From contig JAGWOC010000006.1 in assembly GCA_028872875.1 (NCBI GenBank), positions 7,796-71,795 of the forward strand: a stretch of DNA of 64,000 nt. The letters are read 5' to 3'. This DNA is from Chloroflexota bacterium. Lineage in GTDB: Bacteria; Chloroflexota; Dehalococcoidia; DSTF01; JACRBR01. Position 1 is the stretch's first letter; each line of letters begins with the position of its first letter. The position numbers and the translations under genes were made by a program. A model generated the notes under the pieces. That model saw only the letters and a list, made by a program, of their open reading frames with translations. It searched no databases and was not told the DNA's origin. Shown here in pieces: positions 20,650 to 45,102 of the stretch.

Positions 20650-20910
20650 GCCGCCCGCGCGTCCCTGCCCGATGCCTGCTCTCAAGCCCTGCTCCTGCCC
20701 GCCGCGTTCGAGTGTAGGGGCAAGCGGATCGATCGTCAATCGGCCAGGCGCCGCACGCGGCTGCACCGGCGGCGCCACCCGCCGTTGTCCTGCCGGCGGC
20801 CCCTATGCTACGATCGGCATCGCCACGTATTGGTGTTCCCCGATCCTCAGAAGCGAGCCTGCGCCCGAAGCCTGCTTCGCGCGGCAGCGACAGAACGAGT
20901 GGCTTCGGCG

Positions 20911-21491
20911 ATGCGATGCGCACTGGCGGCCGTGCTGGCTCTCACCTTCGTCGCCGGAGGCTCCGGCGTTGGCGCGCACGCGACGGGCGCGATCGCCCCG
21001 ACGATCGTGAGCCGTCTGGCCGACGCGTCCCGGCACGAGATCACCGGTGGCGAGATCGCCAGCGGCGAAGCCCTGCTCGTTCTCGCCACCGTCGGCGGTA
21101 GCGGCGCCCCATCTACAGGCGGCGTCACCGTCGACCGCTACGACGCCGCCGATTGCTCCGGCCCGGCGACGAGCGGCGCCTCCGTCCCGCTCACCACCCA
21201 GGGCGTCCCGGCCGCTCACGCGGCGGATCTCTCGAACGCCGCCGGCTGGGACAGCGCCACCACCTGGAACTCGAACAGCCAGGATGCGCCGTCATGCGCG
21301 CCGACGTGAACGGCGACGGCGTCGCCAACATCCTCGACCTTGCGGCCACCGCATCGCAGTACAGCCAGGCCGTGCCGCCGGCGCGCGCCCGCTACGACCA
21401 GGGCCGGCCGCCCTTCGACTGCGTGATCAACATTCTCGACCTGGCGAAGATGGCCGCGGTCTATGGCCAGAGCGTCACCGGTTGCCCGTAG
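20911..21491 (+). pseudogene. Broken secreted protein with C-terminal dockerin-type domain
   Basis: Signal peptide ORF 20911-21309; in another frame ADVNGDGVANILDLA...INILDLAKMAAVYGQSVTGCP duplicated Ca-loop motif ends at 21491. Confidence 0.65.
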
Positions 21492-21569
21492 GCGCGCACT
21501 TTCCGGCTCCCCGCCACACAGGCCAAAGAACGCACCGTGGGCTGGTGTCCCACCGGCGGTCGCGCCGTG

Positions 21570-21903
21570 GACGATCACCGACGTGTTGAGCGGCCACAAG
21601 CAGATCGCCAACGCAGTCATCAGGGCGATGATCGCGCGGGCGGGGGAGATCAGCGAGCAACCGGGACACTGGTGGTCCGATCAACGCAACAACCACGACG
21701 CAGTCGGTGGTTACCAGGCGCTCGGTGAGGAGATCTGGCGGCAATCGGATGGCCGGGTGGACGCGTTCGTGCACATAGTGGCTACGGTCGTGGCGGCGCT
21801 GCGCGTCGCGGAGCGGATCGGCGCGCGCGCGCGCGTGGCGACGCGGATCGTGGACTCCGGGTGCGGGTACCTCAGCACCGGCGTGTACGCGCGGGTTCCG
21901 TAG
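21570..21903 (+). pseudogene. Cysteine synthase family remnant with internal deletion
   Basis: WWSDQxNN..GEEIWRQxxGRVDAFVH joined directly to C-terminal VVAALRVAERIG..IVDSGxxYLST; no N-terminus or PLP lysine. Confidence 0.7.
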
Positions 21904-21963
21904 CCGCCTCTGGCCCACGGGCGGATCGCCACTCCACCAGCCGGACCGGGAACCACGCGCAGC

Positions 21964-22956
21964 TCACACCCGCTTGCGCCGCTCCGCGAACACGCCGAAC
22001 ACTGCGATCACTGCCAGCCCTCCGACGATGCCGGCGAACGCGATGATGGCGGGCGCAAACGACGAGGGCTTGCGGACGATCTTCTCGCCGGAGATCTGCA
22101 GATCGACGAACTGCGACACCGACTTGATGCCATCGCGCTGACCGTCGCTGCCGTTCCAGACTGCGAACGCCGCGTTCGTCTTGCCACCGGGGGCGAATGA
22201 TGGGGAGCCCTCGGCTCCCGCCAACGAGCGGACGAAGAGCACGCGCCAGCGGCCGTCCTTCCAGCGACCGACGCCACCTACGTCCTGCACGTCCGCGTTT
22301 GTCAGTGTGCCGAACTGAGCGGCAACAAGGTTCTCGACCGGCGACCCGTGTTTCTGAGCCGAGAGCGGGTTGCCGGCGGCGAGCCCCGTCTGGAACGTCG
22401 TGTCGCCGTCCTGGGGATAGAGGTCGACCTGCATGTTGGCGTAGCGCGCCCGGTTCGTGGCGAAGCCGCTGTCAACATCACGTTGCCACGCTGCCTTCCA
22501 ATGCCAGATGTTGACGCCGGCGCCCGGGTCGCCCATGCAGAACGACGGGATACGGGTCGTGCCTGCCGCCGGGAACTCCACCGCGGCAGCGTCGGTGAAC
22601 GATGTTGTCGTGTCGATAGCAGCGTCCTGCGTAGCGTCGGACCATTCGCTTAGAATGTACAGACGCTTGCCATCATGTGCGGCGCGCAGTTGCACAGCGG
22701 CGACCGTACCGCCGCCCATGGGACGCGTGATGTTCTGCGCGGAGAGTGCCACATCAACGGGTTGGACGTTGTTCCAGAATGCCGCGAACGGATCATCACG
22801 AGGCACGGAGGGCGCGGCGCGGACCTGCACGACCTGCGCCTGGGATGAGGCGGGCATGACGCCGAGGAAGCCCGTCGTCGCGGCCACGACGGCCGCCGCA
22901 AGGACGATAGCGAGGCCGGCGGCGAACCCGCGCGACGGGACTCTACGGCTCATCAT
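21964..22956 (-). CDS. Type II DMSO-reductase-family gamma subunit (EbdC/NxrC-like haem b protein) with C-terminal TM anchor
   Basis: Sec signal; DAAAVEFP, FCMG, VNIWHWKA, WKDGRWRVLFVRSL, AFAVWNG..RDGIKSVS (Met/Lys haem ligands); terminal TM plus ERRKRV. Confidence 0.88.
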   Translation of the reverse strand: MMSRRVPSRGFAAGLAIVLAAAVVAATTGFLGVMPASSQAQVVQVRAAPSVPRDDPFAAFWNNVQPVDVALSAQNITRPMGGGTVAAVQLRAAHDGKRLYILSEWSDATQDAAIDTTTSFTDAAAVEFPAAGTTRIPSFCMGDPGAGVNIWHWKAAWQRDVDSGFATNRARYANMQVDLYPQDGDTTFQTGLAAGNPLSAQKHGSPVENLVAAQFGTLTNADVQDVGGVGRWKDGRWRVLFVRSLAGAEGSPSFAPGGKTNAAFAVWNGSDGQRDGIKSVSQFVDLQISGEKIVRKPSSFAPAIIAFAGIVGGLAVIAVFGVFAERRKRV

Positions 22957-23683
22957 GTTCGCCTCCAGCTAGCTCGCCCGCCATGCACGGCGGATCTTCG
23001 CCCGGCTCCTCGGGCCGGTAGGGTTGATCCGGAAGGGCCGCGAGCGCCCCGACCCGCAGGTGCCGCCGTTCCCATGCAAGGAACGCCTTCAAGAGCGCGC
23101 CTGCGGCACCGATGACGCCCTCCGGATCCGCGACCACCATGCGGTCGCCGATCGCGTAGCCCCACCGGCCAAGGTGGTCGCGAAAGAACGCGCGTCCAGC
23201 CTTTCTACAGATGGCGACCTGGGCGCGGCCGTGATGTTCGAGCGCGTACGCTTCTTTGAGCGCGAGCAGATAGGCGAACTCCAATTCCATGGCCAATCCG
23301 TCGGGCCGCTGGCCATGCGCCTCGACGCCGAAGGCGCGGTAAAAGCCGGCGACGTCCGCCATCTGCTCGGATGCCTGGAAAAGATGCTTCGCGGTGTACG
23401 CGGTCTCGTACGCGGGGCAGATGGTCGATGTCGTCATCGTGAAGACGGTCGTGTGCGCGCGTTCCAGTGCTTCGTCGTCGCACGCATCCAGCGCGACGCG
23501 CAGATGTTGCACGTCGTCCGCGACGCCAGCATCGATGACGCCTGCGGCCTCGGTAGCGGCCGCGGCGACGCCGCGGAGGGCCTGGCACGTGTCGGGCGTG
23601 GGGTAGGCGCACGCGAGCGAGAGCAGCCTGTACACGACGGCGCGGCTCAGCGTGACCTCGTCGGCGGCGACGGTGGCATTCAT
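22943..23683 (-). CDS. TorD/NarJ/EbdD-like molybdoenzyme maturation chaperone
   Basis: CPAYETAY, ADVAGFYRAFG, RPDxLAMELEF, FFRDHLGRW motifs. Confidence 0.88.
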   Translation of the reverse strand: MNATVAADEVTLSRAVVYRLLSLACAYPTPDTCQALRGVAAAATEAAGVIDAGVADDVQHLRVALDACDDEALERAHTTVFTMTTSTICPAYETAYTAKHLFQASEQMADVAGFYRAFGVEAHGQRPDGLAMELEFAYLLALKEAYALEHHGRAQVAICRKAGRAFFRDHLGRWGYAIGDRMVVADPEGVIGAAGALLKAFLAWERRHLRVGALAALPDQPYRPEEPGEDPPCMAGELAGGEHDEP

Positions 23684-23697
23684 CAGTGTCGACCTCT

Positions 23698-24945
23698 CTA
23701 GATGGTGTTCAGGTACTTCGGACCGCGATCGTGCAACGGCTCCATGACGCTCTGTCGCACGATCTCCTTGCCGTTCCGGTCGAAGCCGACCACGGTATCG
23801 TTGAACAGCTCCATCGTCTTCCCGGCGACGTTCATCTCGCCGATCTTGTGCCCGTTGACGACCTCGAAGCGGTGGACGATGCGCTGCGTCGTCCGGAACA
23901 GTTGCAGTACGGCCTGCAAACGGCGCGACGGTGCGGCGTACCGCTCGATCGCGGCATCGGCGCCCGGGCCGAACATCTGGTGCAGATACGGCCGCGGCAC
24001 CCATCGGGGCGGGATGTAGTAGATGTTGGGTTCGGTGCCGAACTGTGGGTAGAGCGGCAGCGCCACCTGCTCCTCGCGCACCATGTAGTACAGCGGGTTA
24101 TCCGGGTTGACGGCCCATCTGCCGTCCGCTCCGACCTCGATCAGCCCCTGGAGCCGGATCTTGCCGACGCAGGCGGACATGCAGCGCGTCTCCATCGGCT
24201 CGCCCTCAGAGATGGGGTCGGTCCCTTCGATGCGCGGGTAGCACGCGATGCACTTCTCCGACACCCGCGTCGTGCTGCGGAACATGGGCTTTTTATACGG
24301 GCACTGCTCGACGCACTTGCGGTAGCCGCGGCACCGCTGCTCATCAATCAGGACGATGCCATCCTCCGGGCGCTTGTAGATAGCGTTGCGGGGACACGCC
24401 GCCAGGCACGCCGGGTACGTGCAGTGGTTGCAGATGCGCTGCAGGTAGAAGAACCAGGTGCGGTGCTCGGGAAGGCTCGTCGCTTGCAACTCGCTCTCCC
24501 TGCGGTTGCGCGGTGTGTCCTCGAAGATGTTGGGTGCCGTCCATTCATCGTCTGTAGGCAGGTAACCGATTGCCTCATCCGTCTTGCCGAGGGCGGCGGC
24601 GGCCTCAAAGATCGTCTTGCCGGTGAACTGACCGTAGGGCGCGGCCGGCGTCGCCGTCCGGCCATCCCACTTCTGCCCGCCGGGATCCGCCTTGTCGAGG
24701 AGCTTGAGGGTGTTGACATCCCAGTGGTGCGGGTAGCCGCCGTAGGGCTTCGTCTCCACGTTGTTCCACCACATGTGCTCCTGGCCCTCGGAGAAGGTCC
24801 ACGTGGACTTGCACGCCATGGTGCACGTCTGGCAGGCGATGCAGCGGTTAATGTTAAACACCGCCGCGAACTGCCATTTCGGGTGCGCTTCGCGGAAGCG
24901 GTAGGTCATCGGGCGGCCGAGTTGCCAGTTGTACACGTCAGGCAT
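23698..24945 (-). CDS. nxrB: Nitrite oxidoreductase / nitrate reductase beta subunit (periplasmic NXR type)
   Basis: MPDVYNWQLGR N-terminus, FNINRCIACQTC, WWNNVETKPYGGYP, FFYLQRICNHCTYP, CRGYRKC, ALPLYPQFGTEPN; four Fe-S motifs. Confidence 0.92.
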   Translation of the reverse strand: MPDVYNWQLGRPMTYRFREAHPKWQFAAVFNINRCIACQTCTMACKSTWTFSEGQEHMWWNNVETKPYGGYPHHWDVNTLKLLDKADPGGQKWDGRTATPAAPYGQFTGKTIFEAAAALGKTDEAIGYLPTDDEWTAPNIFEDTPRNRRESELQATSLPEHRTWFFYLQRICNHCTYPACLAACPRNAIYKRPEDGIVLIDEQRCRGYRKCVEQCPYKKPMFRSTTRVSEKCIACYPRIEGTDPISEGEPMETRCMSACVGKIRLQGLIEVGADGRWAVNPDNPLYYMVREEQVALPLYPQFGTEPNIYYIPPRWVPRPYLHQMFGPGADAAIERYAAPSRRLQAVLQLFRTTQRIVHRFEVVNGHKIGEMNVAGKTMELFNDTVVGFDRNGKEIVRQSVMEPLHDRGPKYLNTI

Positions 24946-25222
24946 GACGGACCTCTTGCGCAGGAGCAACGCACAGGACGTCGTCGAGCAGGCTGTGGAT
25001 GAATGCTTCGCCGCGCTGGTGATAGACGGCGTGGGTCCCGGCGTACCTCGGGTTTTCAAACAGGCGCAGGATGCGCTCGCGGGGCCAGCCCATCATCGCG
25101 TACTCCTCGATGAAGGCGCGCGCCATGGCCGCGGCGCCGTCGTAGCCGGGCGGGCCGTCGACGAACACCGCCATTGCCTCGAACGGGTCTTCGGCCTCCG
25201 CGCCCTTGTGGAACTCCGCCAT
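24938..25222 (-). CDS. Small hypothetical protein between alpha and beta subunits
   Basis: 94 aa, own RBS (GAGGAG), stop overlaps nxrB start. Confidence 0.75.
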   Translation of the reverse strand: MAEFHKGAEAEDPFEAMAVFVDGPPGYDGAAAMARAFIEEYAMMGWPRERILRLFENPRYAGTHAVYHQRGEAFIHSLLDDVLCVAPAQEVRHA

Positions 25223-25226
25223 GTGC

Positions 25227-28200
25227 TTAACTCCTCACCACGTTCATGGCGCCGCCGTCCAGGTAGCGCTCCATGAAGTTGTCCTCGCCCCCGGGAGACA
25301 TGCCGGTGGTGCCGGGCGTCCAGACGCCCTGCCCGCCCATGCCGCCTGGTTCCGCCTTCGTGATGCGCACGAGCGTTTCCTTGGGGACGGTGTTGATCGC
25401 GTGGTTGTCGGCCTCGCCGCCGAACATGAACGACGTGAAGATCTTCTTCTTGTGGAACAGGGTGTCCGTCTGGTGCATCGGCATCGCCCAGTCGCGCGTG
25501 ATGCTCTGCTGCGACCCGTAACGGAAGCTGGCTTGGTAGCCGGTGTCCTCTGACACGGCGCGTCCGTCGGCACGCGTCTCGTGGCCCTTCACAGATTTCT
25601 CTGTGGCGATGAAGGTGCCGTGCTTGGTCATGACCGTGTGGTATGGATATGCCGGGTTGTACTTCACCCGCAGCATCAGCCGCGCCACGTGGTAGAACGG
25701 GTCCTCCGGGTGATCTTCGTGGCCCGGATAAGGCCGGTCGGTGGGGTTGGCGTCGACGTAGACGTAATCGCCGTCCGCTAGCCCCAGGTCGCGGGCGGCC
25801 TGCGGATTCATGTGCAACTGCTGGTCCCCGACCCCGGGCTGCCGCTTCTCGACGCGGCGCGGATCGCCAAAGTTGCTCGCCCAGATGACGTTCCAGTCCG
25901 TGACCGCCCAGCCCGAGTGCACCGTGTGGCGCGTCTTCGGCGTCAAGCAATAGAACTGGAAGCCCTGCTCCCAGAGCGGGTTCTTCGTGTTCTTCACCTC
26001 CCGCCACGGCAACCGGATGTTGCGCACCGTCCGCATCTCGGCATCGAGCTCGTCACGCGCGATGCCGTAGTCCTCGGGCCTGATGAGTTCGTTCGAGCTG
26101 ACGATGACGTTCGGCAGATACGGCGTCGCCTCCGGACCCTCCCGGTGGACGATGAAGTTCTCGCCGTATTCGATCGCCTCCGGGATGTCGCAGTAGGAGT
26201 TCAGCCGCCCGGTGTCGGTCCAGAACGGGTCGTTGTCATGGATCTGGTCCCAGAACGGGATACGGGGATATGTACGGAACATCATCAGCGCCGCGCCGGG
26301 CTCGCCGTACTTCCCGTCGAGAATGTCCTGCACCTTGTAGCCCTTCGTGGTCGCCGATGCGTCCAGCAGCCGCTGCAGGTACACGCGGCCCTTTCCCTCC
26401 AGCGCGAACTTCCAGTAGTCCGCGATGCGCTGGTCGCCAATCTCCCCGGCCAGCTTCTCGGCCACGGCGGCCATGATCCGCAGGTCGTCCTTGGTGTCGT
26501 GCAGCGGCTTGAGGCCGGTCTGCCCCCAGATCTGGAGGAACGGGTTGGAGCAGGACGCCGTCACCTCCAGCTCCTGGAACTCGGACCACGAGTTCGCCGG
26601 AAGGATGACGTCGGAATACTCGCAGGAGGCCGTCATTTCGATGTCCTGCGTGACGATCATGTCGACCTTCGGGTTGACATCGCGGAGCATGTGGTACGCC
26701 CACTTGGCGTTGTTGAAGAGATTGACGTTGGTCGTCCAGATCACCTTCGTGGGCGACGGCATGTGGCTCTTGCCCGTGAATACCTTACGGCCGAGCTTGG
26801 GCGTATCGACGATCAGCGCCTGGTCGCCGTGGTCCCAGTACGCGGGCTCTTCGTCCTTGGTGTAGGCATGCGCCTTGATGTCGGAGCCCGACGCGTTCTC
26901 GTCGAGGTTCATGTCGAACGGATCCTCAGCGATCCAGCCCTTGAAGCCGGGGCCGGATTCCGGCGTGGACTGGAAGAGGGCCGCCTTGTAGTTGCCGGCC
27001 CAGGAGTGGCTACCCGCCCCGGGGATACCGATGTTGCCGGTGAGCATGAGCGGCAGGTACGTCGCGCGGTTGTGCTGCGTGGCGTGAAAATAGTGGTTCA
27101 CGCCCTCACCGGTGTGGATCGAGACGGGTTTCATCGTCGCGATGTCGTCGGCCAGCCGCCGGATCAGTTCCTTCGGCGCGCCAGTGATCTCCGCCGTCGT
27201 ATCGAGGTCGTAGTCGCGCAGGTGGTTGCGGTACGCCTCCCAGAGCGTCAGCACCGCGACGCTCTTCCCATCGGCGAGCTGGATCGTGGCGCGATAGTCA
27301 AGCTTCGGGTCGATGTTCGCGGCCCTCATGCGCTCACCCAGGTCGTCCCGGGTGATGGCGCGCAGCTTGCCACTCGCGGCGTTGAAGACCACGTAATCGC
27401 CGAGTTGCGCGTACTGTTCCTTCGTCAGCCCCTGCCGCGTGAAGCTCGGTCCGTTTGCCGGGAGGCTCGGCTGGTAGCCGGGGAAGACATCGGCGGCGGA
27501 CAAGCGCTTCAGCGTGTCGGTACGGATGAGGAGTGGCAGGTCCGTGTACTTCTTCACGAAATCGGCGTCGTACTTGTTCTCATCCATCAAGATCCGGGTG
27601 ATCGCGAGGAAGATCGAAGTGTCCGACAGGCCCGGCCGCACAGGGATCCAGTAGTCGGACTTCGTCGCGGGCGGGCTGTACTCCGGGCAGATCGTCACGA
27701 TCTTCCCGCCGCGCTCCAGCGCGTCGTGCAGGAAGTGCGATTCGGGCATCTTGTTCTCAACCAGGTTCTTGCCCACCTGGATGAGCAGCCTGCTATAGCG
27801 CAGGTCGTTGAAGTCGACATCCGAGTTCTGCAGGCCGTGGACAAACGGATGTCCCGGCGCCTGGTCACCGTGCCACGTGTAGTTCGACCAGTTCCGGCCA
27901 GCCCTAGCGTCTTCGCGGCCGACACCGCGCACGTGCGCATCGAGCAACGCCAGGGTGTTGGACATGCGGTACATGCCGTACTTGCCGATGACGCCGGTCA
28001 GGCCCATGCCGCCTCGCAGCTTCATCGTCTGCGTGCCAGCGCCGTGCATGTCGGCGATCATCTCCGGCTGGTAGCCCTCGGCCGTCAGCCGCTTCGCTCC
28101 GTCCTCGCCGCTGTAGGCCCGGGCGATGCTCACGAGGCCGCGGGCAACGTATCGCGTGGCTTCGTCCCAACTGGCGCGCACGAACGTGTCGGTGCCGCGA

Positions 28201-36041: not shown

Positions 36042-36842
36042 GTGCCTGATTACAGCGACTACCAGTATCTGACCGTCGAACGCCGGGACGGCGGCGTGGC
36101 GGTGCTGACGTTGAACCGCCCGGAGAAGCGCAACGCCATCAACAACGATATGCACTCCGAGCTCGAGCGAGTCTTCCTCCAGATCGGCGCCGACGAGCAG
36201 GTCCGCGCGCTCGTGTTGACGGGCGCCGGCACGGCGTTCTGCGCGGGCGGAGACGCCCGGTCGATGGAGGACGGGTCGTTCGTGCCATCCGGTCCGGCGA
36301 CGCCGTTCCGCGCGGTGCGCACGCTGCTCCACAACCTGCTGGAGATCGAACAGCCGGTCGTGGCCGCCGTCAACGGCGACGCCGCCGGTCTCGGCGCGAA
36401 CATCGCGCTGTACTGCGACGTGATCATCGCGTCGGAGACGGCGCGCTTCGCCGACACGCACACCCGCATGGGACTCGTCGCCGGGGATGGCGGCGTCATC
36501 ATCTGGCCGCTGCTCATCGGCTGGGCGAAGGCGAAGGAGTACCTGCTTACCGGCGACTGGATTACCGGCGCGCAGGGACAGCAGATGGGACTCGTCAACT
36601 ACGCCGTGCCTCAGGATCAGGTCATACCCACGGCGATGGAGTGGGCGCAGCGTCTGGCAGCGGGCGCGCCAAAGGCAATGCGCTGGACGAAGTACTCGAT
36701 GAACCGCATCCTTCGCGACCAGATCAACCTCGCGCTCGACGTCTCCACGTTCTTGGAGGCGGCCACGATGTACAGCGCCGACCTCAAGGAAGCCGCGTCG
36801 GCGTTCTTCGAGAAGCGTGCGCCCAAGTTCACGGGAGAGTAG
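36042..36842 (+). CDS. Enoyl-CoA hydratase/isomerase family protein
   Basis: LNRPEKRNA, AFCAGGD, AAVNGDAAGLG, GLVAGDGG. Confidence 0.92.
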   Translation: MPDYSDYQYLTVERRDGGVAVLTLNRPEKRNAINNDMHSELERVFLQIGADEQVRALVLTGAGTAFCAGGDARSMEDGSFVPSGPATPFRAVRTLLHNLLEIEQPVVAAVNGDAAGLGANIALYCDVIIASETARFADTHTRMGLVAGDGGVIIWPLLIGWAKAKEYLLTGDWITGAQGQQMGLVNYAVPQDQVIPTAMEWAQRLAAGAPKAMRWTKYSMNRILRDQINLALDVSTFLEAATMYSADLKEAASAFFEKRAPKFTGE

Positions 36843-36853
36843 GAGTCGCGACC

Positions 36854-37825
36854 ATGATCCGCACACCCATCACCGAACTGCTCGGCATCGAGCACCCGAT
36901 CATCCAGGCCGGCATGGGGAGCGTCGCCGGGTCCGAACTGGCGGCCGCCGTCTGCAACGCGGGCGGGCTCGGTGTGCTCGGCGCGGCGTTCTGGCCGCCC
37001 GACCAGCTCCGCAGCGAGATCCGCCGTGTCAAGTCGCTCACCGACAAGCCGTACGCCGTCGATCTGCTCGTCGCCGAGGGCGCGCCGGGGATGGAAGAGC
37101 TGTTGAAGGTGATCTTCGACGAGCAGGTTCCCGTGTTCATCTCCGGGCTCGGCAGCCCGGGCGCGGTCGTCAGCGAAATGCACCGCCGCGGCATGAAGGT
37201 GCTGGCGATGGTCGGGACGGTGCGCCACGCGCGGCGCTGCGTCGACGCCGGCGTCGACGCAGTCGTGGCGCAGGGCACGGAGGCGGGCGGCCACACCGGC
37301 CGCGTCGCGACGTTCCCGCTCGTGCCTGCGGTCGTGGACGCCGTGAGGCCGGTGCCGGTCGCCGCCGCGGGCGGCATCGCGGACGGGCGCGGTCTTGTGG
37401 CGGCGCTGGCGCTCGGTGCATCGGCCGCAGTCGTCGGCACGCGCTTCGTCGCCACGCGGGAGGCGCACGGACACGAAGCCTACAAGCAACGCATCGTCGC
37501 CGCGTCGGAGGAGGACACCGTGGTGACGAAGGTCTACACCGGCAAGAGCTGCCGGGTCATCCCGAACGGCTACATCGACGGATGGGCCGGGCGAGAAGGC
37601 GAAGTCGAGCGCTTCCCGGCGCAGCTTCTGAAGAATTGGGCGCACATGGAGGCCGCGATCGAAGGCGGCGACACCGATACGGGCATCATGCCAGCCGGCC
37701 AGATTTCTGGCGTCGTCCGGTCGGTCGAAAGCGCCGGCGACATCGTGCGCCGGATGATGGCGGAGGCCGAGGCGATCATCACCGGCCTCGCCAGCGCACG
37801 GCTGACCGCAGCGGGCAAAGGATAG
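36854..37825 (+). CDS. Nitronate monooxygenase / FabK-like FMN oxidoreductase
   Basis: PIIQAGMG, QGTEAGGHTG, AAGGIADGRG, GTRF, PAGQ. Confidence 0.9.
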   Translation: MIRTPITELLGIEHPIIQAGMGSVAGSELAAAVCNAGGLGVLGAAFWPPDQLRSEIRRVKSLTDKPYAVDLLVAEGAPGMEELLKVIFDEQVPVFISGLGSPGAVVSEMHRRGMKVLAMVGTVRHARRCVDAGVDAVVAQGTEAGGHTGRVATFPLVPAVVDAVRPVPVAAAGGIADGRGLVAALALGASAAVVGTRFVATREAHGHEAYKQRIVAASEEDTVVTKVYTGKSCRVIPNGYIDGWAGREGEVERFPAQLLKNWAHMEAAIEGGDTDTGIMPAGQISGVVRSVESAGDIVRRMMAEAEAIITGLASARLTAAGKG

Positions 37826-37831
37826 CGGCGC

Positions 37832-38614
37832 GTGGAGTCGAAGCACGTCCTGTTCGAACGGCGGGACCGCGTGGCGCTGATCACCGTCAACCGGCCCGAC
37901 CGGATGAACGCCATCGATCCGGCGACGAGCGCCGAGCTGTTGCGAGCCTTCGAGGCGTTCCGCGATGACGACGCATTGTGGGCAGCGGTGCTGACCGGCG
38001 CGGGCGACCGCGCGTTCTCCGCCGGCGCCGACCTGGTGGCCATGGCGGCAGCCAGCGCGCGCGGCGAAGCGCCCGACCTGCGCGTGCCGTTCGGCGGCAT
38101 CACCCGGAAGTTCGACTGCTGGAAGCCGATCGTCGCGGCGATCAACGGGCACTGCCTCGCCGGCGGACTGGAACTCGCGCTCTGCTGCGACATCCGCATC
38201 GCCGCCGGGCACGCGCAGTTCGGCCTGCCGGAGGTGACGCGCGCGATCATCCCAGGCGCCGGCGGCACGCAGCGGCTGCTTCGCGCCATCCCGTCCGCGG
38301 CAGCCATGCAACTGCTGCTCACGGGCGGCCGCTTCGACGCGCAGTGGGCGCTGCGCGTTGGTCTGGTGTCGGAAGTTGTCGCCGCGGACCGTCTCCTGCC
38401 GCGCGCGCTCGAGATCGCGGATGAGATCTGCCGCAACGGACCGCTCGCCGTGCGGGCGGCGAAGGAAGCCGCGCTGCGGGGCCGTGAGACGACGATTGAA
38501 GAGGGCCTGCGGATCGAAAACGAGAAGGGCCGCGAGGTGATCGCGACCGCGGACGCCCGCGAGGGCCCCAGGGCATTCGCCGAAAAGCGCGCGCCACGCT
38601 ACGAGGGCCGCTGA
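37832..38614 (+). CDS. Enoyl-CoA hydratase (crotonase, CaiD-like)
   Basis: AFSAGADL, GGLELALCCD, FGLPEV, PGAGGTQRL (both catalytic Glu present). Confidence 0.92.
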   Translation: MESKHVLFERRDRVALITVNRPDRMNAIDPATSAELLRAFEAFRDDDALWAAVLTGAGDRAFSAGADLVAMAAASARGEAPDLRVPFGGITRKFDCWKPIVAAINGHCLAGGLELALCCDIRIAAGHAQFGLPEVTRAIIPGAGGTQRLLRAIPSAAAMQLLLTGGRFDAQWALRVGLVSEVVAADRLLPRALEIADEICRNGPLAVRAAKEAALRGRETTIEEGLRIENEKGREVIATADAREGPRAFAEKRAPRYEGR

Positions 38615-38615
38615 G

Positions 38616-39662
38616 TTGGAGACGACGATGCTGGCCGCCCGCTTCTATGCGCCCGGCGAACCACTTCGCGTCGAGGAGGTGCCGATGCCGGCGGCCGGCC
38701 CCGGCCAGGTGCTCGTTCGCGTGACCGCGTGCGGCATCTGCGGGTCGGACGTTCACTTTGTCGAGGGGCGTGCGCTGGTCGCCGCGACGCCGATTACGCT
38801 CGGGCACGAGCCAGCCGGGGTCGTCGTCGAGACGGGTGCGGACGTGACTGACATCGCGCCCGGCCAGCGGGTCGTTGTCCGCCCGGGCGCGGGCTGCGGC
38901 CGCTGCCGCGCCTGCGCATCCGGGCGGGACAGCCTGTGCGAGCGCACGCGCGTGTTGGGCATGCACGTGGATGGCGGGCTCGCGGAGTACCTGGCTGCGG
39001 ACGCGTTGAGCCTTATTCCCGTGCCGGACGGTGTGCCGCTGGAACAAGCGGCGATCATCAGCGACGCAGTCGCGACGCCGTATCACGCACTCGTCGAACG
39101 AGGCGCGTTACAGGCCGGCGAGTCCGTGGCCGTCTTCGGCTGCGGCGGGTTGGGCACGCACGCCGTGCAACTGGCCCGGCTTGCGGGCGCGGCGACGGTG
39201 ATCGCCGTCGACGTGCGCGCGTCGGCGCTGGATCGGGCGCGCCGTGCCGGCGCCGACATCGCGATCGACCCGAACCAGGAGCGCCCGGCGCGCCGCATCC
39301 GCGAGCTTGTTGGAGGCGTTGACCTGGCGCTGGAGTGCGTCGGTCGCGCGGATACGATCGGCGAGGCGGTCAAGAGCCTTTGCCGCGGCGGGCGAGCGGT
39401 CGTCGTGGGCATGGGGCCGGACGCGATCCAGTTGCCGCCGCCCAACGTGTTCACCTGGAGTGAGCACGCGCTCATCGGCTCGTTCGGCAGCACTGCGGCC
39501 CACGTGCGGCGCCTGCTGGGCATGGCCGCGTCGGGCCGTCTCGATCTTTCGGCCTCGGTGACAGCGGTGCTCCCACTGAGCGACGTCAACGCCGGCCTCG
39601 ACATGCTGCGGGCGCCCGGCGGCGACGCGGGGCGAGTCGTCGTGCAGCCCGGGCGAGAGTAG
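38616..39662 (+). CDS. Zinc-binding alcohol dehydrogenase
   Basis: CGICGSD, GHE, CGRCRAC...C, FGCGGLG. Confidence 0.92.
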   Translation: METTMLAARFYAPGEPLRVEEVPMPAAGPGQVLVRVTACGICGSDVHFVEGRALVAATPITLGHEPAGVVVETGADVTDIAPGQRVVVRPGAGCGRCRACASGRDSLCERTRVLGMHVDGGLAEYLAADALSLIPVPDGVPLEQAAIISDAVATPYHALVERGALQAGESVAVFGCGGLGTHAVQLARLAGAATVIAVDVRASALDRARRAGADIAIDPNQERPARRIRELVGGVDLALECVGRADTIGEAVKSLCRGGRAVVVGMGPDAIQLPPPNVFTWSEHALIGSFGSTAAHVRRLLGMAASGRLDLSASVTAVLPLSDVNAGLDMLRAPGGDAGRVVVQPGRE

Positions 39663-39671
39663 GGGACGCCT

Positions 39672-40529
39672 ATGCGGAAGTACGAGCTGACCCCGCCGTC
39701 ACGCCACATCGGACACTACGTGGAGAGCGGCGACTGGAGCGACTACTGGCGCACAGCTATCAGCCTCGCGCGCGACGGCCGCATCCTGGTCCGCGGCTAT
39801 CCGGTCGAGGAGATCATCGAACGCCTGACATCGACGGAAGCCCACTGGCTGCTGCTCAAAGGGGAACTGCCGACGGTGCGGGAGGCCGCGATCTTCGATG
39901 CGTGCCTCCGCTCCGGCATGGACCAGCAGTTCATCAGCTCGGCGGCCGCCGCGACCCGCTTCGCGGCGTCCGCATCGCAATCGCCCGTGAGCGCCGTCGC
40001 TGCCGGCATGCTGGCGACCGGAACCGTGACCGGATCGCCGCGTCCCGCCATGGAGCTGTTGTACGCGGCGGCGGCGAGGATGGCCGAGCAGGACCTCGCG
40101 CGTGAGGAGGCGGCACTCGCGATCGTCGCGGAGTACCGGGCGCGCCGCGAACTCGTACCAGGCTTCGGCCACCCACTGCATCGTGCCGGCGACGAGCCGC
40201 GCGCCGCCGCGCTGCGCCGCGTCGTCGAGCGCACCGGCGGATGGGGCGAGCACGGCCTGCTGCTCGACGCGATCCACGCGGCCCTCGAGGAGGCGCTGTC
40301 CCGCCCCCTGACCATCAACCTGGCAGGCATGCTTGCCGCGGTGTACAGCGACCTGGACTTCGACCCGCTGATGGCGGAAGGCATCTCGGCTATCGAATAC
40401 GGATGGGCGCTCGTCGCGCACGCCGTCGAGGAAATCCGCGATGGTGTGCCATTGCGGATCATCCCGGACGCGCTCGGCGCGGAGTACACGGGTCCACCGG
40501 AGCGGCACATTCCTGATCGAAACGGCTGA
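39672..40529 (+). CDS. Citryl-CoA lyase / citrate synthase-like protein
   Basis: WRTAIS...ILVRGYPVEE, LLKGELPT, PGFGHPLH, YTGP. Confidence 0.8.
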   Translation: MRKYELTPPSRHIGHYVESGDWSDYWRTAISLARDGRILVRGYPVEEIIERLTSTEAHWLLLKGELPTVREAAIFDACLRSGMDQQFISSAAAATRFAASASQSPVSAVAAGMLATGTVTGSPRPAMELLYAAAARMAEQDLAREEAALAIVAEYRARRELVPGFGHPLHRAGDEPRAAALRRVVERTGGWGEHGLLLDAIHAALEEALSRPLTINLAGMLAAVYSDLDFDPLMAEGISAIEYGWALVAHAVEEIRDGVPLRIIPDALGAEYTGPPERHIPDRNG

Positions 40530-40556
40530 GACGCGCGAGCGAAAGGATCGAGCAAC

Positions 40557-41342
40557 ATGAGCTTCAAGAACATCCTCCTGGAAGAGAATCAGTCAATAAG
40601 GACCATCACGTTGAACCGGCCCGAACGCATGAACGCCATCAGCACGGACACCGTGCCCGAGCTGATCGAAGCGCTCCGCATCGTCGCAGCCGATGAGGAG
40701 GCGCGCGTGCTCGTCATCACTGGCGCGGGCGACCGCGCCTTCTCGGCAGGCGCCGACGTGTCCGACATGGTGCGCCGCACGGCACCTGAGGCCGCCGCGA
40801 TCGTTCGCCTGTATCTGGACTACATCCGGGCGATCCGCGAGTTGCCCATTCCCGTCATCGCGAAGGTGAACGGCGTCGCCGCCGGCGGCGGCTGCTGCAC
40901 CGCGCTCGCGAGCGATATCCGCATCGCGTCGGACCGCGCTCGCTTCGGCTTCGTATTCGTGCGCGTGGGGCTCACCGGGGCGGATATGGGCGCCACGTAC
41001 TTCCTGCCGCGACTCGTCGGCTTCGGCCGGGCGACCGAGCTGCTCCTGAACGGCGACGTGATAGACGCGCAGGAGGCGTATCGCATCGGCCTCGCGAACC
41101 GCGTTGTACCGCACGAGGACCTCGATCGTGTCGTCGACGAGTACGCGAGCCGGCTCGCGGCCGGGCCGCCCCTGGCCCTGAAGCTGACGAAGTCCGCGCT
41201 GAACGCCAGCCTCGACCGTGACATGGCGGCCGAGTTCGACTTCGAGACGTACGCACAGACGCTCTGCATCATCTCGGAAGACCATCTGGAGGGCGCGCAG
41301 GCGTTTCGCGAGAAGCGCGCGCCGGCGTTCGTAGGGCGCTGA
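40557..41342 (+). CDS. Enoyl-CoA hydratase/isomerase family protein
   Basis: LNRPERMNA, AFSAGAD, VNGVAAGGG, FVRVGLTGADMGATYFLPR. Confidence 0.92.
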   Translation: MSFKNILLEENQSIRTITLNRPERMNAISTDTVPELIEALRIVAADEEARVLVITGAGDRAFSAGADVSDMVRRTAPEAAAIVRLYLDYIRAIRELPIPVIAKVNGVAAGGGCCTALASDIRIASDRARFGFVFVRVGLTGADMGATYFLPRLVGFGRATELLLNGDVIDAQEAYRIGLANRVVPHEDLDRVVDEYASRLAAGPPLALKLTKSALNASLDRDMAAEFDFETYAQTLCIISEDHLEGAQAFREKRAPAFVGR

Positions 41343-41352
41343 CGGAGGTGCG

Positions 41353-42495
41353 ATGATCGACTTTTCTCTCACGGAGGAGCAGGAGCTGTTCCGCAAGGCC
41401 ATCAGGACTTTCGCCGAGCAGGAAGTCGCCCCGATCGCCCGCGAGTACGACGAGCGAGAGGAATACCCGGTGCACGTCCTCAAGAAACTCGGCGAACTCG
41501 GATACCTCGGCGCCTCACTCCCGGCCGATGCGGGCGGCGGAGGCGGCGGCATGATCGCCGCCGCGATCATGTCCGAGGAGATGGGGTACGTTTCCGCTGG
41601 CATCTATCTGGGCGTGTACGTCCACGTGTTCCTGGCGCTCAACGCCATCGCACGCTTCGGTAGCGATGCGCAGCGACAGCGCTACCTTGAGCCAGGCATC
41701 CGCGGGGAAACGATCGGCGCCTGGGGATTCGCCGAGCCCGACGCCGGGTCCGACCCAGGGTCGATGACGACGCGCGCCGTCCGGGATGGCGACGACTACG
41801 TGATCAACGGCACCAAGATGTACATCACCAACGGTTCGATCGCCGACTTCGTCGTCGCGACGGCCGTGACGGACCCGAAGCTCGGCATGAAGGGACTGAG
41901 CCTCTTCGTCGTCGACACGGACACGCCGGGGTTCTCCGTCGCGCGAAAGCTGAAGAAGCTGGGCGTGCGGGCCTCGGACACCGCGGAACTCGCCTTTCAG
42001 GACTGTCGCGTGAGCAAGAAGGCGCTCCTGGGCGAGGAGAACGTGGGCTTCGCCAACGCCATGAAGACCCTGACTGCCGGCCGCATCGTCTCGGCCGCCT
42101 TCGCGCTCGGCACGGCGCGCGCCGCGTTCGATCAGTCCCTCGCGCACGTGAAGGGGCGGCACGCCTTCGGTCGGCCGGTCGGGCAGTTCCAGGGGATCCA
42201 GTGGCAGCTTGCGGACATGGCGCTGGAGATCGAGGCGGCGAGGCTGCTGATGCTCAAGGCGGCGTGGCTCTCTGATCGCGGCCTGCCGCACATCAAGGAA
42301 GCGTCGATGGCAAAACTGTACGCCACCGAGATGTGCGCGCGGATCACCGGTCAGGCCGTACTGCTCCACGGCGGCTCGGGCTACATGATGGACTCCGACA
42401 TCCAGCGCTTCTACCGTGACGTCAAAGTCATGGAGATCGGCGAAGGGACGTCGCACATTCAGCGAAACACCATAGCGCGGCAGCTGGGGGTCTAG
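41353..42495 (+). CDS. Acyl-CoA dehydrogenase
   Basis: EPDAGSD, INGTKMYITNG, KLGVRASDT, FQGIQ, HGGSGY, IGEGTS. Confidence 0.95.
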   Translation: MIDFSLTEEQELFRKAIRTFAEQEVAPIAREYDEREEYPVHVLKKLGELGYLGASLPADAGGGGGGMIAAAIMSEEMGYVSAGIYLGVYVHVFLALNAIARFGSDAQRQRYLEPGIRGETIGAWGFAEPDAGSDPGSMTTRAVRDGDDYVINGTKMYITNGSIADFVVATAVTDPKLGMKGLSLFVVDTDTPGFSVARKLKKLGVRASDTAELAFQDCRVSKKALLGEENVGFANAMKTLTAGRIVSAAFALGTARAAFDQSLAHVKGRHAFGRPVGQFQGIQWQLADMALEIEAARLLMLKAAWLSDRGLPHIKEASMAKLYATEMCARITGQAVLLHGGSGYMMDSDIQRFYRDVKVMEIGEGTSHIQRNTIARQLGV

Positions 42496-42526
42496 CCCTC
42501 GCAGCATACGAAAGGAGAGCGACCCG

Positions 42527-43186
42527 GTGGCGTACCAACTGGCGAACCTGGAGCGCGACGGCAAGGTCGCGATCCTCACGCTCAACCGTCCGGAGAAGCG
42601 CAATGCGTTGAACACCGCGCTGCGCGACGAGATTCGGGCCGCCCTGGAAGAGCTGGAGGCGGACGACGCCATCAGCATCGCCGTCATCACGGGAGCCGGG
42701 CCGGTATTCTGCGCCGGATTCGACACCAGCGAGTTCGCGACGGTGTCGCCGGCCGAGGTCTTCGCCGGCGAGTCGTCGCGCCGCTATCATCACCGGCTGC
42801 AGCACTTCGACAAGCCGCTGGTCGCCGCCGTCAACGGCCCGGCCATGGGCGGCGGCTTCGACATCGCCACGCTGTGCGACATCCGCATCGCCGCCGAAGG
42901 CGCGGCGTTCGGGCACCCGGAGATCAAGTTCGGCGCGCCCACGCTGTTCGGGCCGCTGGCCGCGATCATCGGGGGCGGCATCGCCCGCGACCTGTGTTTG
43001 AGCGGCCGCCGCGTCGAGGCGCAAGAGGCGTGGCGCATCGGCCTCGTCAGCAAGGTCGTGCCCACGGAGCATCTGCTCGATGAGGCGAAGACCGTCGCCC
43101 GCACGATCGCCGAGGCGCCCGCGGCCACGCTGCGGAGCGTGAAGACGAACATCCTCGAAGCGACGCCCTGGAAGTTCGGCGAGTGA
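42527..43186 (+). CDS. Enoyl-CoA hydratase/isomerase family protein (short)
   Basis: LNRPEKRNAL, FCAGFD, AVNGPAMGGG, FGHPEIKFG. Confidence 0.9.
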   Translation: MAYQLANLERDGKVAILTLNRPEKRNALNTALRDEIRAALEELEADDAISIAVITGAGPVFCAGFDTSEFATVSPAEVFAGESSRRYHHRLQHFDKPLVAAVNGPAMGGGFDIATLCDIRIAAEGAAFGHPEIKFGAPTLFGPLAAIIGGGIARDLCLSGRRVEAQEAWRIGLVSKVVPTEHLLDEAKTVARTIAEAPAATLRSVKTNILEATPWKFGE

Positions 43187-44367
43187 GCGGCCCGCTCGAT
43201 GGCATCCGGGTCTGCGACCTCACCATCGCGCAGTTCGGCGCACATGCCACCATGATGCTCGCCGACATGGGCGCCGACGTCGTCAAGATCGAGTCGCCGC
43301 GCGGCGGGGATCCCGGGCGCGGCATCGCGCTCCAGCCGGATGGAACATCCGCGTTCTTCCTCGCACACAACCGCAACAAGCGGAGCGTTGCGGTGAACCT
43401 GCGACGTCCGGCAGGCAAGGAGATCGCCCGGCGGCTCGCGGCGCGGTCTGACATCTTCGTGCAGAGCTGGAAGCCCGGCGTGATCGAGCGATTGGAGCTC
43501 GACTACGACAACATCAGGCGTGTGAAGCCGGACATCATCTACGCATCGGCAAGCGGCTTCGGTCCGCGCGGTCCGCGCGCGCACTTGGCGGCCATGGACA
43601 TGGTCGCCCAGGCAGTCGGTGGGCTCGCGCTTGCGAACACGCCGCCCGGGTCGGACGAGCCGTCACCCGTCGGACCCACCATCGCGGACCAGACCGGCTC
43701 TCTCCTGCTGGCGTACGGCATCGTCCTGGCGTTGTTGCACCGCCTGCGCACGGGCGAGGGACAGCAGGTCGATGTCTCGCTGCTCGGCGCGCAGATGACG
43801 CTCCAGGCGTGGAACATCGCCAACTTCTTCCTCAGCGGCGAGCAGACGCGCGGGGGACGCAGGGACGCGATCTCACCACTGTTCACGTTTTATCGTGCCA
43901 GCGACGGTTGGTTCGCCATCGCCATCATCGACGAGCGGCAGTGGCCGAAGCTGTGCCAGATCGTCGGGCGGCCCGAGCTCGCGACCGACACGCGTTTCGA
44001 TGGACGAGACGGGCGGGAGCGGCACAAGGGCGAGCTCATGGCCGAGCTGGATGCCGCGTTCGGCAGGCGGCCGCGAGACGCATGGCTCCGTGCCTTCGAG
44101 GCCGCCGATATCCCTTCTGGTCCCGTCAATGCATACGGCGACCTCGCCGCCGATCCGCAGGTGATCGCGAACGGCTATCTGGTCGAAACAATCGCCGGGA
44201 CGCGCTCGACGCGTCTCGTCGGCCCCGCCGTCGAGCTCAGCGCGAGCCCCGCCAGCATCCGCCCGAAAGCTCCAGAACTGGGTCAGCACACCGAGGAGGT
44301 GCTCCTGAATCTCGGGTACGAATGGGACGAGATCTCCGCGCTCCGCGAAGAGCGCGTCATCCTTTGA
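43183..44367 (+). CDS. CaiB/BaiF family III CoA-transferase
   Basis: PLDGIRVCDL, LADMGADVVKIE, NRNKRS, GEGQQVDVSL, APELGQHT. Confidence 0.93.
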   Translation: MSGPLDGIRVCDLTIAQFGAHATMMLADMGADVVKIESPRGGDPGRGIALQPDGTSAFFLAHNRNKRSVAVNLRRPAGKEIARRLAARSDIFVQSWKPGVIERLELDYDNIRRVKPDIIYASASGFGPRGPRAHLAAMDMVAQAVGGLALANTPPGSDEPSPVGPTIADQTGSLLLAYGIVLALLHRLRTGEGQQVDVSLLGAQMTLQAWNIANFFLSGEQTRGGRRDAISPLFTFYRASDGWFAIAIIDERQWPKLCQIVGRPELATDTRFDGRDGRERHKGELMAELDAAFGRRPRDAWLRAFEAADIPSGPVNAYGDLAADPQVIANGYLVETIAGTRSTRLVGPAVELSASPASIRPKAPELGQHTEEVLLNLGYEWDEISALREERVIL

Positions 44368-44405
44368 ATGGCATCGCAAGTTGTGAGAAGCAGGGAGGAA
44401 CACCG

Positions 44406-44789
44406 ATGACCACAGCCAACGAAGCGACGATCCGCGAGTTCTGCGCCGCGTTCGCCCGGCGCGACGTGGATGAGCTGCTGACGTTCTTCACCGACGACGC
44501 CGTCTATCACAACATGCCGATGCGCCCGGTGCAGGGCGAGGCGGCGATCCGCGGCGTGCTCGAGATGTTCCTCAAGCCGGCGCAATCGGTGGAGTTCGCG
44601 GTGCTCACGATTGGCTCGGCTGGCGACACCGTCTTCACTGAGCGCCTCGACACCTTCCTGATGGGCGACCGCCGAGTGGAACTGCCGATCGCAGGCGTAT
44701 TCGACTTGCGCGGCGGCAAGATCGCGGCATGGCGCGACTACTTCGACCTGGCCACCTGGACGAAACAGGCGAGCCCTCCGGCGGGCTAA
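44406..44789 (+). CDS. Limonene-1,2-epoxide hydrolase family protein (NTF2/SnoaL fold)
   Basis: DAVYHNMP, VFTERLD, GKIAAWRDYFD motifs. Confidence 0.85.
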   Translation: MTTANEATIREFCAAFARRDVDELLTFFTDDAVYHNMPMRPVQGEAAIRGVLEMFLKPAQSVEFAVLTIGSAGDTVFTERLDTFLMGDRRVELPIAGVFDLRGGKIAAWRDYFDLATWTKQASPPAG

Positions 44790-44799
44790 GGAGGAGGCG

Positions 44800-45102
44800 A
44801 TGGAGCAAGGAGCGATTCGTGTTCCCGTCAATGCGCCCGGCGGCGTACTCGGGGTGACTCCGGCGACGAGCTGCTGACGGAGGCGATGGCGTTCGCGCGG
44901 CGGCTCGCCGAGGGGCCGGCGGTGGCGATGCAGCTCGCGCAGCGGCTCGTCTACCGCGGCGCCGAGGGGACGGGCTGGCTGGAGGCGCTGGAACAGGCGA
45001 ACACGGCGATGGCGATCGTCCAGTCGACGGAGGACGCGCGGGAGGGCCCGCGAGCGTTCGCGGAGAGCCGGGCGCCTAAGTTCACCGGGCGGTAGCGCGG
45101 CG
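44800..45102 (+). pseudogene. Truncated operon gene start fused out of frame to the 3' third of an enoyl-CoA hydratase gene
   Basis: Strong RBS AAGGAGGAGG + ATG 44800 stops after 25 codons; 44853-45102 is an inverted copy of 52988-53238. Confidence 0.8.

Follow-up and report, generated by a model that had tools for sequence, protein, structure and literature searches.

A 24-kb block in the 64,000-nucleotide stretch of DNA analysed here (the window, G000:C169:7796-71795, where G000 is the genome that bears it) is probably a composite, accessory region whose modules were inherited separately, and not one integrated system. One module (module A) joins an orphan molybdenum enzyme related to ethylbenzene dehydrogenase (EBDH) and S25DH with a metallophosphoesterase, a TetR-family regulator and an 11-gene acyl-CoA operon, and the other (module B) is a cassette for a periplasmic-type nitrite oxidoreductase/nitrate reductase (NXR). 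A first-pass annotation, made from the DNA letters and their translations, had proposed that the block is a single horizontally acquired system in which O2-independent hydroxylation and beta-oxidation are coupled to the NXR. Our gene calls, which combined a listing of open reading frames (ORFs), a filter on GC content at third codon positions (GC3) and searches of Pfam, NCBIfam and PDB sequences, reproduced the gene content and order that it had given, and revealed a polytopic membrane protein that its gene list lacked. The Chloroflexota host that it had supposed was also confirmed: all named relatives of the RpoB protein at 81-95% identity are labelled Dehalococcoidia or Chloroflexota/Chloroflexi, which places the host in Dehalococcoidia. 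G000 is a metagenome-assembled genome of 3.41 Mb in 234 contigs, with a GC content of 70.3%, a completeness of 95.5% and a contamination of 3.5% (3.47% estimated).

The two modules have different histories, because the operon tracks host kinship and NxrA groups with that of genome G005 and with Acidimicrobiia. Genome G012, from the same family as the host, carries the TetR gene and the whole operon at 72-92% identity, with neither the alpha subunit nor an NXR nearby. The identities of the acyl-CoA dehydrogenase (ACAD) and CitS proteins are 90/83% between the window and G012 and 93-95% between G295 and G325, and fall to 74-80% between these groups, which indicates that the operon proteins follow host kinship. 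The NxrA tree (FastTree, with SH-like support only) puts the window and G005, which are 88% identical, as sister to an Acidimicrobiia pair, and G035 and G038, which belong to the same order as the host (69% identity), in another clade. The clade that holds the NxrA of the window is sister to the Brocadia NxrA group. We did not find NxrA in any of three genomes of the same genus (completeness 76-98%).

The neighbourhoods of both modules point the same way. We compared 80 NxrA loci from other genomes, of which 36 extend for 5 kb or more upstream and 8 kb or more downstream. None has the TetR or phosphoesterase gene, two have an EBDH-like alpha gene (23-30% identity), and each operon gene has a match in zero to two loci, at no more than 45% identity. 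The closest cassette is that of G005, and the alpha, TetR and phosphoesterase genes have no match in the 5.9 kb of contig that precedes its membrane protein gene. Conversely, the operon marker (the citryl-CoA-lyase-like gene) was found in 2 of 40 relatives (G012 and G035), 8 of 300 class-level genomes and 1 of 400 phylum-level genomes. Eight operon loci were informative (G328 was left out, as its contig ends 77 bp after the operon). An NXR cassette adjoins the operon in two of these, the window and G295, and in none of the other six (G012, G035, G141, G169, G325 and G100). The closest operon relatives of the window (G012) and of G295 (G325) are among those without an adjacent NXR. The NXR itself is widespread: relatives are encoded in more than 549 stretches of the genome collection, across many phyla, and an NxrA-like gene (E<=1e-200) is present in 40 of 300 sampled class-level genomes, in about 24 cases with an identity of at least 60%.

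Table 1. Features of the block, with coordinates in the window.
Feature	Position	Strand	Basis or remark
NxrC-like haem-b gamma subunit	21964..22956	-	PF09459 EB_dh, E 5.3e-35
NarJ/NxrD-like chaperone	22943..23695	-	PF02613, E 3.8e-16
NxrB, Fe-S beta subunit	23698..24945	-	Fer4_11, E 4e-24
orf94, conserved 94-aa ORF between nxrA and nxrB, no family	24938..25222	-	conserved in NxrA loci
NxrA, catalytic Mo subunit of periplasmic-type nitrite oxidoreductase/nitrate reductase	25227..28682	-	1151 aa; 7b04_B match
Polytopic membrane protein, no known family	28695..29918	-	12 bp upstream of nxrA; likely start ATG near 29777
Spacer of ~260 nt, alpha stop codon to membrane protein start	29777..30040	-	structured; perfect 9-bp hairpin
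Orphan EBDH/S25DH-like type II dimethyl sulfoxide (DMSO) reductase alpha subunit, 928 aa	30040..~32826	-	2ivf_A
Metallophosphoesterase, CpdA/SpdA-like	32844..33662	-	PF00149, E 3.6e-20
TetR-family regulator	33659..34339	-	PF00440 (TetR_N), E 2.7e-18
Divergent control region, 134-bp TetR-ligase gap	34340..34472	.	two promoter-like sites
11-gene acyl-CoA catabolic operon	34473..44789	+	Pfam and NCBIfam matches

A proposed TetR-switched hydroxylase and acyl-CoA unit

The divergent switch that the first-pass annotation had placed between the operon and the leftward TetR, phosphoesterase and alpha genes is borne out. The control region contains two opposed promoter-like sites with identical hexamers (TTGACA-18-TAAACT), and TAGCG-NN-CGCTA palindromes lie over each of the two -10 boxes, at 34353-34366 and 34438-34451. 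In G012, similar sites (ACTAGCG-NN-C(G/A)(C/T)TAG) are found at both -10 positions. TetR orthologues are divergent from the operon in G012 (80% identity), G295 (65%), G325 (65%), G035 (59%), G328 (58%) and G169 (56%). A scan of the window at up to two mismatches found the operator-like pattern twice, both times in the TetR-ligase gap, against 5.0 occurrences expected by chance; as this count is not above chance, it is the position of the sites that carries the argument. The same scan found no such site upstream of the membrane protein gene or nxrA. We infer that TetR represses transcription in both directions through these putative operators. The phosphoesterase scored 164.6 bits against NF050112, under the cut-off of 400.

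The best solved relative of the alpha subunit is EbdA (2ivf_A), to which residues 24-904 aligned over EbdA residues 63-952 with 610 bits. The FS0 cluster motif is spaced as in EbdA (H-x3-C-x5-C), Asp and Lys stand at the positions of EbdA Asp223 and Lys450, and EbdA His192 aligns to an alanine beside a two-residue deletion; we take Asp223 to be the Mo ligand. The score was 905.6 bits against TIGR03479, under its cut-off of 984.75, and 645.2 against the EbdA equivalog NF042978, whose cut-off is 2000. We found no twin-arginine motif in the alpha subunit of the window or in any of 10 orthologues, all of which have short hydrophilic N termini, and in four orthologues the upstream frame closes within 9-24 codons, leaving no room for a hidden signal. 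Because it has no twin-arginine translocation (TAT) signal, the enzyme is probably cytoplasmic. Nor does the window locus contain an adjacent beta, gamma or delta gene of its own. As judged from its gene, the alpha subunit thus misses several features of EBDH: it scores too low for the curated family models, is apparently not exported and is not encoded in an operon with beta and gamma genes of its own. We predict that it hydroxylates a C-H bond with water, in the manner of EBDH and S25DH. Some relatives at 50-52% identity carry the JGI label 'steroid C-25 hydroxylase alpha subunit'. In a literature search whose coverage did not extend to subscription journals, no title or abstract opening concerned TAT-less EBDH-like enzymes or their expansion in Chloroflexota.

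This enzyme is one of 13 EBDH-like alpha paralogues in G000, encoded in the window and on contigs C42, C50, C59, C110, C141, C168, C185 and C220. Twelve of the 13 lack a TAT signal, and only the C220 paralogue has one, with the motif S-R-R-x-F-L-K. For these 13 subunits the genome has about three beta genes, two gamma loci and two NarJ-type (PF02613) chaperone genes. We considered whether the chaperone of the NXR cassette might be the sole NarJ-type chaperone for all of the alpha subunits, and rejected this on account of the second PF02613 gene, on C141. Related genomes have between 0 and 15 copies, and the same-genus genome G003 has none at E<=1e-100. Near the paralogues of G000 we counted four enoyl-CoA hydratase family (ECH) genes against 1.0 expected and two ACAD genes against 0.9, and two of the ECH loci counted are those of the window itself; a general association of the other 12 paralogues with beta-oxidation genes is weak.

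The operon encodes, in order, an AMP-ligase, ECH1, a FabK/NMO-like protein, ECH2, a zinc-dependent alcohol dehydrogenase (ADH), the citryl-CoA-lyase-like protein, ECH3, ACAD, ECH4, a family-III CoA-transferase and an LEH/SnoaL-like protein. None of these enzymes scored above a curated NCBIfam cut-off, and so no substrate can be named. The gene order is the same in G012, G295, G325, G328 and G169. An alpha gene accompanies these genes in varied arrangements: in G035 an orthologue (71% identity) lies inside the operon, between ECH2 and the ADH gene; in G141 it follows ECH2 at the operon end; and on the metagenome contigs L129, L130 and L132 it comes after ECH, ACAD and CoA-transferase genes, at 46-66% identity to those of the window. 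This recurrent adjacency is good evidence for a shared function, and supports a recurrent unit of the EBDH-like alpha gene and the CoA operon, which the first-pass annotation had placed on either side of one TetR-controlled switch. The two are not always found together. The operon, or a cluster that resembles it, stands without an adjacent alpha gene in G012, G169, G295, G325, G328 and G100 (in G100 at 38-66% identity), with G169 and G325 having TetR and the operon only, and alpha genes stand without the operon in G005, G011 and the copies of the C168/G002 type.

In four genomes, genes for APH-family kinases lie within the operon/alpha unit or next to it (window 45236-46237, L217 17469-18251, L129 6470-7321 and L235 13183-13998). 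They are 28-41% identical to one another.

We propose that TetR, bound at two palindromic operators over the -10 boxes of the divergent promoters, would act as a substrate-inducible repressor. Leftward, it would control its own gene, the phosphoesterase and a cytoplasmic, TAT-less orphan Mo hydroxylase of the EBDH/S25DH-like type. Rightward, it would control the 11-gene operon, whose enzymes would oxidise the alcohol so formed, attach CoA to the acid and break it down in steps like those of beta-oxidation. An alkyl- or isoprenoid-type, possibly alicyclic, compound may be the substrate.

The NXR cassette and its two unnamed proteins

The cassette (21964-29918, minus strand) encodes, in order, the membrane protein, NxrA, a small ORF product, NxrB, the chaperone and NxrC. 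NxrA aligned to Kuenenia NxrA (7b04_B) with 1708.5 bits over almost its whole length (residues 4-1146 against chain residues 3-1144), and carries a TAT signal at residues 4-21 (PF10518, E 6.4e-6). NxrB, which probably starts at the methionine at residue 39 of ORF 23698-25059, scored 250 bits against TIGR03478, under the cut-off, and matches the beta subunits encoded at 66 of the 80 NxrA loci with 58-69% identity. The chaperone probably starts at the methionine at residue 108 of ORF 22943-24004, and its relatives align from residue ~104-119. NxrC scored 152 bits against TIGR03477 (cut-off 169.85), and its translation has hydrophobic ends that we read as a signal peptide at the N terminus and a membrane helix at the C terminus. 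The NCBIfam type II subunit models as a whole match the cassette subunits, all under their curated cut-offs. With full-length likeness to NxrA, a TAT signal, and NxrB, NxrC and chaperone genes in one cluster, we assign the cassette to the periplasmic-type NXRs. Sequence does not reveal which way it works, and nitrite oxidation and nitrate reduction are both possible. According to passages of PMC10732223, this NXR clade unites nitrite oxidisers with nitrate reducers (Ca. Methanoperedens, Thermogutta), the Kuenenia enzyme is bidirectional, and direction is not assignable from sequence.

The order nxrA-orf94-nxrB-nxrD-nxrC is widespread among the 80 loci, with the beta, delta and gamma genes present in 66, 60 and 61 of them, respectively. 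orf94 adjoins nxrA in 52, which come from many phyla; the sampled Brocadia loci lack it. It has no Pfam family, and its Atlas clusters are annotated as 'hypothetical' only. The AlphaFold model is a four-helix protein, predicted with confidence (pLDDT 83.1), with no PDB match at E<=0.001 in a Foldseek search.

The membrane protein likewise has no Pfam or NCBIfam family, falls in unnamed Atlas clusters, and gave a model of about 12 helices (pLDDT 76.5) with no PDB match at the same threshold. Its gene also lies directly upstream of nxrA in G005 (62% identity), G022 (58%), L082 and L040, whereas four Chloroflexota loci (L043, L045, L068 and L069) have it downstream of nxrC. Found with nxrA in one subclade, it is possibly a membrane partner of NXR. 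The NxrA gene of G022 (L015/L025, G022:C14:395463-398607) is broken, with six TGA codons and one TAG codon within the match; the membrane protein, chaperone and gamma genes are recognisable, and the cassette looks as if it is decaying.

The spacer that separates the membrane protein gene from the alpha stop codon is predicted to fold into a stable RNA structure (z -4.39; none of 200 shuffled sequences was as stable). A scan of positions 20500-46000 against Rfam at E<=1 gave one chance miRNA match only, and hence no family, molybdenum cofactor riboswitch or other riboswitch for the spacer, which is not conserved in G005 or G022. Because of this structured 260-nt spacer and the lack of an operator upstream, we suggest that the cassette is a separate transcription unit. 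Module B is probably an outward-facing NXR of the Kuenenia/Nitrospira type that the C-terminal helix of NxrC anchors in the membrane; a chaperone of its own and two conserved proteins without a known family come with it. Probably transcribed on its own, it would interconvert nitrite and nitrate in general respiration. G000 has a haem-copper oxidase, and RuBisCO was not found in it.

Two other ORFs near the block may be mentioned. Just upstream of the window, G000:C169:6700-7479 encodes a NirK-like multicopper protein (176 bits against TIGR02376, cut-off 296) with one in-frame TAG. To the right of the block, 47558-50473 is a 971-aa ORF with an N-terminal GH3 glycosidase domain and a C-terminal OmpR-type DNA-binding domain (Trans_reg_C).

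Coupling, single transfer or accretion

The first-pass annotation held that the hydroxylase, the CoA operon and the NXR form a dedicated anaerobic degradation module. Electrons would go to nitrate through the NXR acting as a nitrate reductase or, in a variant, the NXR would oxidise nitrite released or met in the pathway. We consider this doubtful, although several observations favour it and weigh against separate modules. In G295, an nxrA-orf94-nxrB-nxrD-nxrC cassette ends 1.1 kb from the CoA-transferase (3') end of a complete TetR and operon unit, in convergent orientation. This locus lacks the alpha, phosphoesterase and membrane protein genes, and its NxrA comes from another subclade (71% identity to that of the window, 80-83% to L041, L101, L079 and L075). 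In G325, a congener of G295 whose operon is 93-95% identical, nxrA is on another contig. The window and G295 therefore represent two unrelated arrangements with two NxrA subclades, which indicates that NXR cassettes came to lie beside the operon twice, independently. Five of the eight other operon-bearing genomes (G035, G169, G295, G325 and G328) have an NxrA of at least 60% identity, as does G000, whereas G012 and G141 have only an NxrA of the 41-42% type and G100 has none. Two independent juxtapositions in six genomes far exceed what random placement in a 3.4-Mb genome would produce. EBDH-like alpha paralogues also lie near nxrA in G295 (five, at 13-35 kb) and G169 (three, at about 20-30 kb). 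The bidirectionality of the Kuenenia enzyme and the nitrate reducers of its clade, as presented in those passages of PMC10732223, would allow the NXR to work in the direction required.

Against coupling stand the six operon loci with no adjacent NXR and the NxrA neighbourhoods, in which the partners from module A are lacking or at best distant in sequence. We found no operator upstream of the NXR cassette, and the convergent orientation in G295 makes co-transcription impossible there. The alpha subunit is TAT-less, whereas the NXR is exported. NXR genes are frequent in the family of G295 anyway (12 of 17 genomes), so that co-occurrence at the genome level is weak evidence, and with a haem-copper oxidase in the genome the pathway need not be anaerobic. 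The first-pass annotation had named unlinked parts in all other genomes as the finding that would sink its proposal: the parts are indeed apart in most genomes, but G295 is an exception for the NXR and the operon. With no shared operator or transcription unit, differing compartments and separate histories, we do not uphold the coupling itself. The surroundings of nxrA in G295 and G169 look to us like regions in which molybdoenzyme and respiratory genes gather. Upstream of nxrA on G295:C3 (L232 9-2402 and 5081-6544), large proteins with as many as six cupredoxin/plastocyanin-like domains are encoded near MobB and a histidine kinase; the cupredoxin-repeat proteins are possible electron carriers for NXR.

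A bolder version combines two claims: that Dehalococcoidia have a clade of cytoplasmic, TAT-less orphan EBDH-like Mo hydroxylases that serve an acyl-CoA pathway under a TetR switch and may act on an intracellular or CoA-activated alkyl or isoprenoid intermediate, not on a periplasmic hydrocarbon, and that the repeated, independent placement of NXR beside the operon (G000 and G295) reflects selection for coupling with nitrate/nitrite redox chemistry. We regard this combination as unlikely. If coupling were true, the O2-independent breakdown of recalcitrant organic compounds would have in an NXR-type enzyme a dedicated outlet for its electrons or a sink for nitrite.

It is quite unlikely that the whole 24 kb arrived in one horizontal transfer of a ready-made island, with the other arrangements being later break-ups. 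Such an event would account for the composition of the block. GC content over 22.5-32.5 kb is 65.3-66.0% in 5-kb windows, among the lowest 0.7-1.7% of 582 genome windows. GC3 is below the genome median of 0.913 in 19 of 20 block genes (0.81-0.89; one gene is at 0.93), compared with 0.90-0.96 in flank genes, and returns sharply to 0.94-0.95 at 45236. The alpha gene of the window has a GC3 of 0.85, against 0.93-0.95 in 11 other paralogues measured. As GC3 is low over the whole block and not in the NXR part alone, there is room for one shared origin, and this too weighs against separate modules. The depression is not extreme, however (10th-37th percentile), and tetranucleotide usage singles out the NXR part only. 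At least as distant from the genome as this part (0.228) were 2.7% of 300 random genome pieces; the corresponding ranks are 14% for the alpha-phosphoesterase-TetR part and 32% for the operon, whose distance of 0.116 is ordinary. The first-pass impression, formed by eye, that the block is less GC-extreme than its flanks fits the lowered GC and GC3. In G295, nxrAB show the same dip in GC (63-64% against 66-70% around), which implies that part of the low nxrAB GC is a protein constraint. We consider the signal of foreign origin to be real but moderate. Single transfer also sits poorly with the nearest relatives of each part, since the operon is closest to that of same-family G012 (83-92%), with no alpha or NXR nearby, and the NXR is closest to that of G005, with no match to the alpha, TetR or phosphoesterase genes in the 5.9 kb of contig next to the membrane protein gene.

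In G001 and G002, which belong to the host genus, the corresponding flanks enclose no such block. There the left-flank genes are joined directly to w51492, inverted, which indicates that the 21-51 kb stretch is not at this site. The pair w50554/w51492 (window 50554-52904, compared with L211 and L213) is inverted relative to the left flank in these genomes, and an inversion would thus have accompanied the gain of the 21-50 kb stretch. Together with the lack of NxrA in the genus and the rarity of the operon marker among relatives, these comparisons, proposed with the first-pass annotation, mark the block as accessory. They fit single transfer as well as accretion, and the borders have none of the usual signs of an integrative island. 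Among the window ORFs scanned with Pfam and NCBIfam there is no integrase domain, the nearest tRNAs are at 57-58 kb of the window, with none at the borders, and no flanking repeat family links the two borders; the block is not an integrative genomic island on these observations. The truncated genes that had been noted at both borders are weakly borne out. On the left (20779-21963), ORF 21463-21903 is a sub-threshold PALP fragment (22.3 bits, cut-off 35) with no relative in 40 related genomes, and on the right (44790-45235) nothing was identified. Horizontal acquisition thus stands in so far as the block is accessory; as a single acquired module it does not, for its three parts have different histories and are apart in most genomes.

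That the junctions are chimeras of the metagenome bin is very unlikely and can be dismissed, despite the fragmentation and estimated contamination of the assembly and the shifts in composition at about 21.9 kb and about 33 kb: Logan contigs from runs of two studies bridge the left border (X1 19500-22261), the membrane protein/alpha junction (X1 27507-30132 and X5 29393-30220) and the alpha/phosphoesterase/TetR/ligase stretch (X1 32695-35515 and X2 33138-35488), and an independent 3.9-kb metagenome contig, L124, has the same phosphoesterase-alpha pair at 90% and 94% identity. The junctions are real.

We therefore return to accretion of separate modules, which would have been joined in a flexible region that collects molybdoenzyme genes and which may be linked by respiration only. 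The TAT-less orphan hydroxylases and the two unnamed conserved proteins of the cassette are the most original concrete findings. The lineage consists of uncultured Chloroflexota found in mine-drainage and sediment metagenomes. Kuenenia-type NXR genes are common in Dehalococcoidia and should not be taken for markers of nitrite-oxidising autotrophs. As the EBDH-like alpha subunits of the lineage are mostly TAT-less orphans, reading 'ethylbenzene dehydrogenase' calls as anaerobic hydrocarbon activation would misinterpret them. The alpha and operon unit, with its defined putative operator, offers a tractable route to identifying the substrate.

Comparison with known systems

The NXR of the window shares with NxrABC of Kuenenia stuttgartiensis (7b04) and with the enzymes of Nitrospira and Nitrospina a full-length NxrA, a TAT signal, an Fe-S beta subunit, an EB_dh gamma subunit and a NarJ-like chaperone. 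It differs in its host, a heterotroph-like member of Dehalococcoidia with a haem-copper oxidase, in which RuBisCO was not found. Whereas the sampled Brocadia loci have the gamma, beta and delta genes upstream of alpha, and no orf94, the cassette here has the order A-orf94-B-D-C and an extra polytopic membrane protein. The C-terminal anchor helix of NxrC also sets it apart from the Kuenenia-type NXR.

The alpha subunit resembles that of EbdABC from Aromatoleum aromaticum (2ivf) in its 610-bit alignment, FS0 spacing and equivalents of Asp223 and Lys450. In contrast to EbdABC, it has no TAT signal and no adjacent beta, gamma or delta gene, has alanine in place of His192, scores below the EbdA equivalog cut-off and is embedded in or adjacent to acyl-CoA genes. 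In the number of its paralogues, G000 recalls Sterolibacterium denitrificans with its S25DH/S26DH enzymes. Parts of PMC8449060 give eight S25DH-like genes for this bacterium, and parts of PMC7411048 describe one chaperone gene (SdhD, delta-4) co-expressed with DH5-7. Unlike S. denitrificans, G000 belongs to Chloroflexota, 12 of its 13 alpha subunits lack a TAT signal, and it has only about three beta, two gamma and two chaperone genes for them; we identified no steroid-ring degradation genes in it. The APH-family kinases near the operon and alpha genes recall the 25-hydroxysteroid kinase and its hydroxylation-phosphorylation-elimination logic in the anaerobic sterol side-chain route, as outlined in parts of PMC8449060.

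Finally, the block may be compared with mobile respiratory islands such as the perchlorate reduction genomic island (PMC4623255). It differs from them in that no integrase, transposase, tRNA target or flanking repeats were found, and resembles them as a type II DMSO-reductase respiratory cassette in an accessory region, with a patchy distribution that crosses phylogeny.

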